Shown: positions 5,755 through 8,228 of the stretch, piece by piece
Position numbering within the stretch: the first letter of the stretch is position 1
Layout: each line of letters begins with the position of its first letter
From: an uncultured Candidatus Saccharibacteria bacterium
Lineage (GTDB): Bacteria; Patescibacteriota; Minisyncoccia; Phycocordibacterales; Zambryskibacteraceae
NCBI GenBank assembly: GCA_964349945.1
Contig: CAYGIH010000001.1
Coordinates: forward strand, 361,218 to 372,580
Direction: 5' to 3'
DNA length: 11,363 bases
Translations under genes and position numbers: made by a program
The notes under the pieces: model-generated
The model's input: only the letters and a program-made list of their open reading frames with translations
What the model was told of the DNA's origin: nothing
Database searches by the model: none

Positions 5755-7494
5755 CTATTCACCTATATCATGTTCAATCTCTTTCATCTGTTTATGAATC
5801 ACTTTTTCTGCATCTTGAATATTTTGTCTGAACCTCTCTATGATAACTGCTTCTTCTTCAGTTAATCTTCTTCGACTCTTGGTCTTCTCAAGTAAGTGAA
5901 TGCTATCTTCTATATCTTCCTTGAGTAAGGCAAGTGCTTTATCTACCATATGTTCAACATCATGGAGCTCTCTACCAACTTTCTTTCTCATTTGTCTAAC
6001 TTTGTTGTATCCATAAAGGGCTAAAAAAATTAAGAAGAATATCAAGGCCAAAAGTGGGATGGCGAGAGAGAAGAATTTAGTGAGACCAACTCCAATTGAT
6101 TCAAACCAACCAGCATTCACCAATACTACCTTTGAAGTTGAATGTAGGCTTTCTGCCCCTCGACTGTCTATGGATACAGCGGTTAGTTTATAAACACCAC
6201 TCGTGAGTTTGCTTCCGTCTATAGAACCAGAAAACCCTCCTGCGCTATCCGTGTTCACTATTATAGACACTTCATCACTACCAGTTTTGTTCATGATGAT
6301 ACGCACTTGATTACCTATAGCACCCTTGCCATGAACAATCAGTGGATCATTGCCTGAAACCTTCTCTGTATAAGAAGTAATAATTGGTGACTCTATACCA
6401 GTAATAGAAAAGTTTGTAGACGCAGTAGAGAAATTCCCAGCATAATCAAAAGCTTTAGATACAAGAGTGTGGATACCTGGACCAAGGACTGGTGCACGAT
6501 AAACTCCTGTGCCATCATCCTCCCATATAACAGGGGCAAGTGAATCAATTTGGATTGAATAATTTTTAACTCCGGATGTGACGTCTGTAGCTGAAAGACT
6601 AAAGCTTGGTCTTGGTTCGGTCGAATCAGAAGATGGAATCTCCTTCACACTAAAGTTTTCTGGAGGTACAGTATCAACTCTAAACATATAATGTGCTGGC
6701 TGACCCCAACCTTTCGAATTCTTTAATTGCACATGCATATACCAAATACCATCATCAGTGTTGGCAATTTGTTTGGAGCTGATTGGTGGAGCATAGACGA
6801 TTGTCCCTTCAGAAGTTGGTTCCTTGCCTGCTAGTAACCGCACCGATGTTATGTCTGGAGAAAGTTTCCATGAGAATGTCCCAATTTTACTTGTATACCA
6901 TGTGCCTTGAACAGGATACTCGCTTGAATTTATTACTGGTGGTTTAGGCACTCCTGCCACCACGGCTGGGGTATCAATTACAACTGGTGCTGGTTCTGCT
7001 GCTGAAGAACTCTGTAAAGTAAAGGTGGCTGTATTTTGATTTATAAGAATATTCGTACCATTACCATCATTGGCTAGTAGTTGTGATGCTCCGAATCTTA
7101 CAGGAGCTTCGCCTTGTCCGATAACTCTAAAATTAATGGTAACTATCCTACCAGCAGTACCTTGAAATCCTGGATTAGGCACAACCCCTTCGAAAGTTAC
7201 TGTACCTGAATTATTTGAATATGTAGGTTCTGTTACCCATAGACTCAAAATAGAAGAAGTTTTAGAAACAGAAACAACTTGTAATTTATCTACAGGGAAA
7301 GTGACAGTACCAGAAACAGCATTAATAGCTTGATTAGTAGAAGTGACATAAACATTTACAGGAAAAGTTTTTCCTGTTTGATAAACGCCCACGCTAGGAC
7401 TTAATCCAAGAGTATTGGCAAAGGCAAAAAGCGGAAAAAGAAAAAATAGAACAAGAGCTATAGAAACATTTTTAAAATGTATGAAAGAACACAT
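5755..7494 (-). CDS. Type I membrane protein: signal peptide – cohesin-like domain – 3 Ig-like beta-sandwich domains – TM helix – ~85-aa charged coiled-coil-like cytoplasmic tail
   Basis: 579 aa. Signal peptide 'VSIALVLFFLFPLFAFA'. The N-terminal domain is paralogous to the upstream 260-aa protein (INAVSGTV..P.D / GFQG / LLANDGNGT). Later domains carry the 'AxDxAGNxS'-type Ig motif ('AFDYAGNFS'). TM 'FFSLAIPLLALIFFLIFLALYGY'. Tail 'NKVRQMRKKVGRELHDVEHMVDKALALLKEDIEDSIHLLEKTKSRRRLTEEEAVIIERFRQNIQDAEKVIHKQMKEIEHDIGE'. ATG at 7494; 37-nt overlap with the upstream gene. Confidence 0.6.
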   Translation of the reverse strand: MCSFIHFKNVSIALVLFFLFPLFAFANTLGLSPSVGVYQTGKTFPVNVYVTSTNQAINAVSGTVTFPVDKLQVVSVSKTSSILSLWVTEPTYSNNSGTVTFEGVVPNPGFQGTAGRIVTINFRVIGQGEAPVRFGASQLLANDGNGTNILINQNTATFTLQSSSAAEPAPVVIDTPAVVAGVPKPPVINSSEYPVQGTWYTSKIGTFSWKLSPDITSVRLLAGKEPTSEGTIVYAPPISSKQIANTDDGIWYMHVQLKNSKGWGQPAHYMFRVDTVPPENFSVKEIPSSDSTEPRPSFSLSATDVTSGVKNYSIQIDSLAPVIWEDDGTGVYRAPVLGPGIHTLVSKAFDYAGNFSTASTNFSITGIESPIITSYTEKVSGNDPLIVHGKGAIGNQVRIIMNKTGSDEVSIIVNTDSAGGFSGSIDGSKLTSGVYKLTAVSIDSRGAESLHSTSKVVLVNAGWFESIGVGLTKFFSLAIPLLALIFFLIFLALYGYNKVRQMRKKVGRELHDVEHMVDKALALLKEDIEDSIHLLEKTKSRRRLTEEEAVIIERFRQNIQDAEKVIHKQMKEIEHDIGE

Positions 7495-8228
7495 AGTATT
7501 AACACTCCTATTATAAACCCAATAAACGTGTACTCAAAGTACTTTGGACCAAAAAGTGTGGAGATTCGCTCATTACCAGATTTGTCTATTGCCTTTATGA
7601 AAATTCTTTTTGATAATTCACTCTTATTTAAAACAAATGGGCTTTCAGCTGGCTTCCACTCGCCTGCACTCGGACTAAAAAATCTTGTGGCTGCATATTC
7701 GTAATGATCAATGCCCATTCCCTTATCTTGAGTGACGAAGGACAAAAAATACAAATTATCAAAAACCTCTGGTGACTTAGAAATTTCTGATACAAAGACT
7801 TCCGGAGAAGTGGTGTCTTTATTTATTATTGTTGATGCAATTGTTAACTTCACTGACACCGCGGTGCCTTGTCCATCATTCTCCAAAGCTCTTACCCCTT
7901 GAAAAGTAAATCTATTCAAATCTTGCTCATTAAAGTTTCCTTCCAAAGAAAACAAACTCCAGACTCCTTGGAAACCACCAGGGGTGAACCCTGAAAACCT
8001 GATGGTGTTTGTGCTTTTATCAAGAGTTGGTTTATCTACCCAAAATACAAGGACAGAATTACCATCATAAATTTTGGTAATAGATATATCTTTAGGAATT
8101 TGTATTGTTCCCTCTATTGCATTGATAGAGTTTGAGTTTGTGTCTACATTAAGAACTGCAGTATAGGCTAAAGCCAACTTTGGTAAAAAGATAACTGATA
8201 TTATTAATAATAGAAAATATTTTTTCAT
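7458..8228 (-). CDS. Tail-anchored membrane protein: signal peptide – cohesin-like domain – Ig-like domain – C-terminal TM helix
   Basis: Start chosen at ATG 8228..8226 ('MKKYFLLLIISVIFLPKLALA' signal peptide, AGG 5 nt upstream) rather than the TTG at 8240. The domain 'INAIEGTIQIPKD…FSGFTPGGFQG…RALENDGQGT' is paralogous to the downstream protein. 'AIDKSGNER' Ig-like motif. C-terminal TM 'FIGFIIGVLILCVLSYILKMFL'. This ATG shares one base with the TAA of the dockerin gene (TAATG). Confidence 0.6.
   Translation of the reverse strand: MKKYFLLLIISVIFLPKLALAYTAVLNVDTNSNSINAIEGTIQIPKDISITKIYDGNSVLVFWVDKPTLDKSTNTIRFSGFTPGGFQGVWSLFSLEGNFNEQDLNRFTFQGVRALENDGQGTAVSVKLTIASTIINKDTTSPEVFVSEISKSPEVFDNLYFLSFVTQDKGMGIDHYEYAATRFFSPSAGEWKPAESPFVLNKSELSKRIFIKAIDKSGNERISTLFGPKYFEYTFIGFIIGVLILCVLSYILKMFL

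Follow-up and report, generated by a model that had tools for sequence, protein, structure and literature searches.

Non-cellulosomal cohesin and dockerin modules occur in many bacteria and archaea, and binding between archaeal cohesins and dockerins has been verified (PMC9012536, in which the survey of such modules by Peer et al. 2009 is cited). Here, we analyzed a stretch of 11,363 nucleotides (the window; contig CAYGIH010000001.1 of assembly GCA_964349945.1, positions 361,218 to 372,580) from an uncultured Candidatus Saccharibacteria bacterium placed by GTDB in the Zambryskibacteraceae. Three adjacent genes of the window, all on the minus strand like every other gene in its list of open reading frames (ORFs), encode a secreted protein with a C-terminal dockerin (DOC, 8228 to 9541), a 256-residue cohesin protein (SHORT, 7458 to 8228), and a 579-residue cohesin protein (LONG, 5755 to 7494). 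We propose that this triad is a surface module of Parcubacteria-type Patescibacteria that acts as a non-cellulosomal cohesin-dockerin anchoring system; the probability of this reading, in which the binding is predicted from sequences and models, is roughly 0.65. The parts are familiar, and what is new is a fixed set of one dockerin and two paralogous, stalk-borne cohesins that has been kept throughout a large, poorly understood radiation. No account of the triad turned up in literature searches pairing cohesin or dockerin with Patescibacteria, candidate phyla radiation (CPR), or Parcubacteria, with most subscription papers beyond reach.

Like the cohesin of Archaeoglobus fulgidus (PDB 2xdh) and other non-cellulosomal pairs, the triad has single cohesins and single dockerins, no cellulolytic function, and no multi-cohesin scaffoldin. 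It differs from those pairs in that its cohesins stand at the N-terminal tips of two paralogous stalks of predicted type I topology, the partner gene is fixed immediately upstream, and the trio has been kept throughout the radiation. A cell-bound cohesin holding a dockerin protein at the surface, as is predicted here, is also the arrangement of the clostridial anchoring scaffoldins (OlpA/OlpC and SdbA, PDB 4dh2 and 3ul4; ScaC, 4uyp). Those scaffoldins are attached through surface-layer homology (SLH) domains or sortase (PMC9012536), whereas the module is anchored by a C-terminal membrane helix. In contrast to them, it has no enzymes, carbohydrate-binding module, or cohesin arrays, and its dockerin carries hydrophobic Leu-Val/Ile at loop positions 10 and 11. 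In the cohesin-FN3 modules of Clostridium perfringens (GH84C NagJ, PDB 2w1n; GH33 cohesin, 2vo8), the cohesin is followed by an FN3/immunoglobulin (Ig)-like domain, as in SHORT, and the docking role is non-cellulosomal, as is predicted for the triad. However, the C. perfringens modules belong to large glycoside hydrolases that are secreted, whereas SHORT and LONG are dedicated membrane proteins without an enzyme domain.

According to the record of PDB 2vn5, near-identical halves accompany a dual binding mode in characterized dockerins. The DOC dockerin likewise consists of two near-identical segments, as do the dual-mode dockerins of C. cellulolyticum (2vn5) and C. acetobutylicum (6kgc), and these two structures were among the best fold matches of the SHORT and LONG cohesins. 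The dual mode there means two orientations on one cohesin type, whereas here two distinct paralogous cohesins are on offer. In the TMEM132 family of eukaryotic type I membrane proteins, a cohesin-like domain is combined with tandem Ig domains in cell adhesion molecules (PMC6030884); the likeness to SHORT and LONG is an architectural analogy only, and TMEM132 is not known to have a dockerin partner. In a subsurface study, cohesin and dockerin proteins that a CPR bacterium (Ca. Shapirobacterales) expressed were interpreted as a cellulosome (bioRxiv 10.1101/2021.08.21.457207). An essential envelope protein with a dockerin domain, SEML1_0315, has been reported from the Saccharibacterium Southlakia epibionticum (PMC10633639). 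It was rejected as an instance of the same module: its 927-residue product is encoded by a stand-alone gene flanked by genes for a hydrolase and a tRNA, and no cohesin is annotated in the supplement of that paper.

The gene order of the triad was examined at 80 loci with purpose-built hidden Markov models. SHORT was located directly upstream of LONG at 70 of the 72 loci with enough flanking sequence, and a gene ending in a dockerin, the DOC orthologue, directly preceded SHORT at 66 of 67. The same order was found in Ca. Microsyncoccus archaeolyticus (L004) and in a Magasanikbacterium, both with a PF00404 match, and an extra dockerin within ~6 kb on either side of the module was found only once in the 80 loci. 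In the window, the initial annotation had placed both cohesin genes directly downstream of a dockerin gene, and this arrangement was confirmed by a Dockerin_1 match above the cutoff in the upstream gene. The TAATG junction that it described, in which the stop codon of DOC overlaps the start codon of SHORT, is present at 8230 to 8226 (GGC TAA TG AAA). The last 37 nucleotides of SHORT (7458 to 7494) are also the first 37 of LONG, and AGGAG is located 10 nucleotides upstream of the LONG ATG; overlaps of 17 to 25 nucleotides were also found at this junction in L004 and L005. The SHORT start at ATG 8228 is backed by an identical 256-residue database protein (P0001), and LONG also has an identical database protein (P0121).

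In a distribution scan with one genome per GTDB species, a LONG relative was encoded in at least 580 species genomes. All SHORT and LONG homologues of named source were from Patescibacteria, and the interpretable record titles were all of Parcubacteria type (Wolfe-, Portnoy-, Colwell-, Magasanik-, Jorgensen-, Taylor-, Komeili-, Sung-, Doudna-, Vogel-, and Wildermuthbacteria, and Paceibacterota). Some contigs with the triad (L014, L016, L040, L048, L049, and others) bore the titles Methylomirabilis, Gammaproteobacteria, Deferribacteres, or Saccharibacteria, probably because contigs of metagenome-assembled genomes had been mislabelled or misbinned. When 1.84 billion representatives were searched with the LONG profile, 50,427 matched at E ≤ 0.001 and 6,123 at E ≤ 1e-30; these totals are inflated by giant Ig-repeat proteins and do not measure the size of the family. 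Many full-length proteins of ~580 residues and SHORT-LONG fusions were among the matches. Additional LONG-like copies were located beside the triad at several loci (L035, 7723 to 9762; L038, 8440 to 9825; L052, 3617 to 5848; L046, 104 to 2155; L074, 8416 to 9168); one 251-residue ORF in L074 had both a cohesin-like match and a dockerin.

The dockerin module (8231 to 8386) ends the DOC protein. At the extreme C terminus, Pfam Dockerin_1 (PF00404) scored 29.8 to 30 bits (E = 6.8e-7 at 29.8 bits), above its cutoff of 22.9, and it was also found in the DOC orthologues of L004 and L005. The sequence contains two repeated EF-hand-like segments of loop and helix, with 12-residue Ca-loop-like stretches: DVNNDCKINLVD followed by the helix YSIVAYWY, and DFNHDGKVDLID followed by the helix FSILAYNW. 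The two halves are nearly identical and give the sequence a near-perfect twofold symmetry. The consensus of 74 orthologues was k.DlN.D.rVNLvDFSIaAyWYkr...p...dlNgDgkvdL.DFSImAyyWTG, in which D3, N5, D7, and D14 of the first segment and N34, D36, and D43 of the second were conserved in more than 89% of the sequences. In all 74, the dockerin ended 0 to 6 residues from the C terminus. A homology search with the 58-residue dockerin alone returned only 10 short fragments, all PF00404, and was uninformative on other cargo proteins.

The rest of DOC consists, in order, of a signal peptide, a variable head, a poly-glycine tract, and a pair of Ig domains before the dockerin. The first domain of the conserved Ig region (8747 to 8965) matched Pfam Big_6 with an E value of 5e-6 and 27.1 bits, just under the cutoff of 27.6. 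A run of 17 glycine codons (8969 to 9019) links the head to the Ig-dockerin part and was found at the same position in most orthologues. The N-terminal heads differed by lineage, comprising Cys-rich CGDG...ECDG modules, FN3-like domains, and others, whereas the poly-glycine, Ig, and dockerin parts were conserved. Pfam detected no catalytic or carbohydrate-binding domain in DOC, only the Ig domains and the dockerin. Three start codons were considered, TTG 9583 (451 residues), ATG 9541 (437 residues), and ATG 9505 (425 residues). The last is the choice of gene callers on identical contigs but cuts into the signal peptide; ATG 9541, which yields the full signal peptide MFSRKSFFLLLIMFFTALGVRA and lies 1 nucleotide past the stop of the upstream 555-residue gene, was preferred, although the start is uncertain.

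The N-terminal domains of SHORT and LONG had been described as cohesin-like, and this was borne out by alignments of 56 SHORT relatives and 59 LONG relatives. The cohesin family PF00963 matched 10 of the SHORT relatives (best, 1.3e-7) and 25 of the LONG relatives (best, 7.1e-8), some of which carry the NCBI label "cohesin domain-containing protein." The top three PDB matches of the SHORT family profile were Ruminococcus flavefaciens cohesins (E = 0.0069); the LONG family profile matched only Ig domains (Bap and SiiE) and no cohesins in the PDB. At the level of family profiles, both domains are thus assigned to the cohesins.

AlphaFold2 models of SHORT and LONG reached predicted local distance difference test (pLDDT) scores of 94.2 and 86.0, respectively, and showed the jelly-roll β-sandwich of cohesins, with solved cohesins as the closest structures. 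These comprised mixed cohesin types with similar Z scores: type I (4uyp, 1ohz, and 4dh2), archaeal (2xdh), type II (5k39), and type III (5n5p). The nearest structure, 2xdh, is a non-cellulosomal archaeal cohesin. In a Foldseek search, the best match of the SHORT model was 2w1n, the C. perfringens cohesin-FN3 tandem, which agrees with a two-domain SHORT ectodomain. The nine-stranded jelly roll expected from the initial annotation was found in LONG (residues 27 to 161; 7012 to 7416), the model of which is a complete sandwich of about nine strands, but not in SHORT (residues 22 to 132; 7833 to 8165). In the SHORT clade of the window, which includes 15 of the 56 relatives, 17 to 20 residues corresponding to strand 1 elsewhere in the family are deleted, thereby giving an eight-strand sandwich. 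The earlier span of 7014 to 8165 for the two domain-coding stretches was correct and is refined by these boundaries. The motifs conserved in both paralogues (NA..G, FP, S..W...P, G..F.G..PG.G, and L.NDG.GT) map in the models to strands 3, 5, 6, and 8 and to the loops next to them. In cohesins, strands 8-3-6-5 form the dockerin-binding sheet.

SHORT and LONG are clearly related to each other. In a single BLASTP comparison, residues 32 to 136 of SHORT (numbering of the 260-residue ORF) and 50 to 157 of LONG were 29% identical over 108 residues (E = 5e-11). All four motif blocks previously listed for the common N-terminal domain were found in the SHORT/LONG pair: INAIEGTIQIPKD/INAVSGTVTFPVD, SVLVFWVDKPT/SILSLWVTEPT, FSGFTPGGFQG/FEGVVPNPGFQG, where SHORT is one residue shorter, and ALENDGQGT/LLANDGNGT. 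A comparison of the two family profiles with hhalign gave a probability of 100% and an E value of 1e-41 over 255 columns; in view of both E values, chance similarity or an artifact was rejected. The profile alignment also extended the paralogy beyond the ~120-residue N-terminal domain to which it had been limited. A second, Ig-like domain with the motif DxxPPExF...SGIDHYE is common to both proteins (SHORT 134 to 225 and LONG 270 to 360), LONG has an additional domain of ~105 residues between the two shared domains, and the shared region also includes a C-terminal hydrophobic helix.

The pair had been attributed to a local duplication, and this attribution was contradicted by a neighbor-joining tree built from 161 jointly aligned cohesin domains of 80 genomes. 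The 73 SHORT and 88 LONG domains split cleanly, with zero exceptions. SHORT and LONG cohesins of the same locus were 27.6% identical, compared with means of 32% among SHORT orthologues and 52% among LONG orthologues. Judged from this split and the low same-locus identity, the duplication is ancient rather than local to this genome and predates the divergence of the sampled Parcubacteria-type lineages.

The architectures of the two proteins suggest stalks of different height. SHORT begins with a signal peptide (MKKYFLLLIISVIFLPKLALA, residues 1 to 21; 8166 to 8228), a hydrophobic segment modeled as a helix at residues 2 to 13 and followed by an A-L-A site at which cleavage is predicted. Its cohesin is followed by one Ig/FN3-like domain (residues 140 to 226; 7551 to 7811), which hhalign paired with the LONG Ig domain at residues 279 to 364 and for which the model has strands between 148 and 226. 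A C-terminal membrane helix (residues 230 to 255 in the model, within a hydrophobic segment at 229 to 256; 7464 to 7541) then leaves practically no cytoplasmic tail. The LONG cohesin, likewise preceded by a signal peptide, is followed by a linker of low model confidence (residues 164 to 175) and three Ig-like stalk domains identified from the model and hhalign (residues 185 to 273, 279 to 364, and 371 to 460; 6115 to 6942). The second is Big_13/OmpL47-like and is the paralogue of the SHORT Ig domain, with Big_13 found in 58 of the 59 family members; the third is Bap/SiiE-like, and the family profile matched the Ig domains of Bap (7dm0) and SiiE (2yn3). Searches of Pfam and NCBIfam with the SHORT and LONG Ig domains of the window gave only sub-threshold Big_13 and OmpL47-type matches (OmpL47-type for SHORT, E = 0.0038). 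One short protein and one long Ig-domain stalk had been correctly recognized.

The stalk of LONG ends in a membrane helix (FFSLAIPLLALIFFLIFLALYGY, residues 474 to 496; 6007 to 6075), which is hydrophobic and modeled as a helix, and the sequence NKVRQMRKK. A conserved helical hairpin follows (residues 497 to 579; 5758 to 6006; model helices 463 to 541 and 546 to 578), which by the positive-inside rule is predicted to be cytoplasmic. Its mean identity was 36%, with conserved columns L524, L535, L544, and E548 and the family pattern AF..LKED.E..I..LE..K.KR.LT.EE…AEK.I.KE..DIE, and it matched no known family. The description of SHORT as tail-anchored was not sustained, as SHORT and LONG each have an N-terminal signal-like segment in addition to the C-terminal helix. 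The signal peptides and C-terminal helices together point to type I membrane proteins, in which the ectodomain would be outside and the cohesin at the membrane-distal tip.

Next, the constraint on the modules was compared as mean pairwise identity per module in 69 complete triads. Conservation was highest in the dockerin, with 61%, followed by the LONG cohesin, with 54%. The conserved Ig part of DOC showed 47%, and the SHORT cohesin, with 35%, was among the least conserved. In Mantel tests with 64 triads, the divergence of the dockerin was correlated with that of the LONG cohesin (r = 0.57, P = 0.0005) and the SHORT cohesin (r = 0.48, P = 0.0005). The correlation was lower for the SHORT Ig domain (r = 0.32) and not significant for the LONG Ig domains (r = 0.06 to 0.07, P of ~0.2).

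In the proposed anchoring system, the product of the first gene would be secreted by the Sec pathway and would carry its lineage-variable N-terminal head on the poly-glycine linker, two Ig domains, and the C-terminal dockerin. SHORT would hold its cohesin one Ig domain above the membrane, and LONG would hold its own on the flexible linker and three Ig domains, with the conserved helical hairpin on the cytoplasmic side. With calcium, the dockerin is predicted to dock on the face formed by strands 8-3-6-5, in the LONG cohesin and probably in the SHORT cohesin as well. The variable head would thus be tethered noncovalently to the cell at two heights. The dockerin, with its near-perfect twofold symmetry, could dock in either of two orientations or with either of the two cohesins. 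The idea of one dockerin with two receptors, a proximal and a distal one, advanced in the initial annotation, is better founded now because of the near-universal synteny, the dockerin symmetry, and the divergence correlated with both cohesins. For the biological role, we speculate that an adhesion or recognition head is displayed on the envelope of these host-dependent, ultrasmall bacteria; both this role and the stoichiometry of the module are inferred.

Several points weigh against the anchoring system. The SHORT and LONG proteins of the window gave no cohesin match in Pfam (PF00963, E ≤ 1) or in NCBIfam, and single-sequence searches of the PDB with them returned nothing meaningful. The dockerin-binding face was assigned only from the strand order in the models. 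Canonical type I dockerins carry Ser-Thr at the positions where the DOC dockerin has Leu-Val/Ile, and the recognition chemistry would therefore differ from the canonical one. Physical linkage or a shared recombination history could contribute to the correlated divergence, because the 3' end of the dockerin gene, SHORT, and the 5' end of LONG are one contiguous block of DNA; this caveat is weakened by the SHORT Ig domain, which lies nearer to the dockerin than the LONG cohesin does but shows the lower correlation. Finally, the SHORT cohesin, which is poorly conserved and lacks strand 1 in the clade of the window, may not bind the dockerin.

The difference in conservation between the two cohesins makes it possible that LONG alone is the main receptor. 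In its full form, this alternative states that LONG is the sole dockerin receptor and that SHORT is a diverged paralogue with another role, such as an association with LONG by way of the Ig domain and membrane helix that both contain, or recognition of a different ligand. The much better conservation of the LONG cohesin, in the module comparison as well as in the orthologue means, agrees with it. SHORT-LONG fusion proteins of 866 to 901 residues (P0246, P0251, P0253, and P0257, and also L030, 5062 to 7695) further suggest a single functional unit. However, SHORT retains the motifs of strands 3, 5, 6, and 8 in common with LONG (NA..G, W...P, F.G..PG.G, and L.NDG.GT), the divergence of its cohesin follows that of the dockerin, and the gene itself was kept at 70 of 72 loci. 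We therefore consider a LONG-only receptor unlikely, though a serious contender. The fusion proteins have the SHORT ectodomain and membrane helix followed by the LONG signal-like segment and the entire LONG protein, a layout that implies a helical hairpin or internal cleavage.

It is also conceivable that no cohesin-dockerin interaction takes place at this locus. The cohesin-like domains would then be generic β-sandwich tips of envelope or adhesin proteins, the dockerin would have its partner elsewhere or serve as a calcium-stabilized C-terminal module, and the gene order would reflect a shared envelope function. The lack of a direct PF00963 match in the window proteins is in line with this explanation, and the family-specific NDGxGT signature is not known from canonical cohesins. 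Furthermore, the partners of non-cellulosomal cohesin and dockerin modules are often not known (PMC9012536), and the Saccharibacterium protein described above is an essential stand-alone dockerin-domain protein without cohesin neighbors (PMC10633639). In contrast, the near-universal adjacency of the genes, the rank of the dockerin and the LONG cohesin as the two best-conserved modules, a correlated divergence specific to the cohesin domains, and the high fold match to dockerin-binding cohesins all argue for an interaction, and its complete absence is judged improbable. A cellulosome or cellulosome-like polysaccharide-degrading complex, of which cohesin and dockerin modules are the hallmark and as which the Ca. 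Shapirobacterales proteins were interpreted, is hardly credible here: SHORT and LONG have a single cohesin each instead of an array, no multi-cohesin scaffoldin is present, DOC has no catalytic or carbohydrate-binding domain by Pfam, the heads of its orthologues are Cys-rich or FN3-like, and the neighbors in the window are housekeeping genes (ribonucleotide reductase, GAPDH, RpiB, and Rpe).

In the direction of transcription, the window encodes a 555-residue protein, DOC, SHORT, LONG, an RRM protein, DUF192, a class II ribonucleotide reductase, GAPDH, RpiB, and ribulose-phosphate epimerase. The 555-residue protein (9543 to 11210) is a repeat-rich surface protein abutting DOC, and its gene is probably cotranscribed with DOC. 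It has FN3-like repeated modules of ~95 residues (…TTYYFRAYATNPGGTG…), then a long low-complexity tail rich in Gly, Ser, and Thr, and a hydrophobic C terminus (residues 536 to 554). It was rejected as a core member of the module, with relatives at just 7 of 85 loci. At 13 to 17 loci, but not in the window, the dockerin gene is preceded by a gene for a protein of ~200 to 250 residues (IGVGVG.GKIEV…; e.g., L004, 7346 to 8107, and L005, 7387 to 7974), which has a weak NPCBM_assoc-like match and a C-terminal membrane helix. Its conservation was not consistent, and it was likewise not accepted as a core member.

Downstream of the module are a 94-residue RRM_1 RNA-binding protein (5293 to 5577) and DUF192 (4736 to 5206). 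In Ca. Microsyncoccus (L004), DUF192 likewise comes directly after LONG, and in L006 it is located near LONG. A promoter and terminator scan of 4500 to 11363 gave counts not above those in shuffled sequence. The best sigma-70-like match of this region (5695 to 5723, minus strand; 11 of 12 positions, with TTGACA, a 17-nucleotide spacer, and TATGAT) lies just past the LONG stop codon and upstream of the RRM-protein gene, which suggests that the surface operon ends at 5755.

A more far-reaching proposal, which we put forward tentatively and consider rather less likely than not to hold in full, is that the triad is a core envelope-display apparatus of Parcubacteria-type Patescibacteria. The symmetric dockerin would engage both stalks, simultaneously or by switching, and would hold a hypervariable head that recognizes hosts or particles, or an S-layer-like coat, and the LONG hairpin would couple surface engagement to the cell interior. 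If this is true, the triad would be the first of its kind: a dedicated cohesin-dockerin system with two receptors that is spread over a whole lineage and serves episymbiotic attachment instead of the breakdown of polysaccharides. For the cohesin-dockerin field, it would offer a natural pairing of one dockerin with two cohesins, with a strongly symmetric and hydrophobic dockerin, and cohesin or dockerin matches in such organisms should not be taken as cellulosomes. The module is compact, it is present in at least 580 species genomes, and its two best-conserved parts are a pair readily testable in vitro; the cocultured archaeal parasite Ca. Microsyncoccus archaeolyticus, which carries it, provides an experimental handle. 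A large part of bacterial diversity belongs to the Patescibacteria, most of which apparently live attached to other cells, and their surface machinery is almost entirely uncharacterized. For these bacteria, the triad provides a hypothesis of how a variable surface head may be anchored without sortase or SLH domains.

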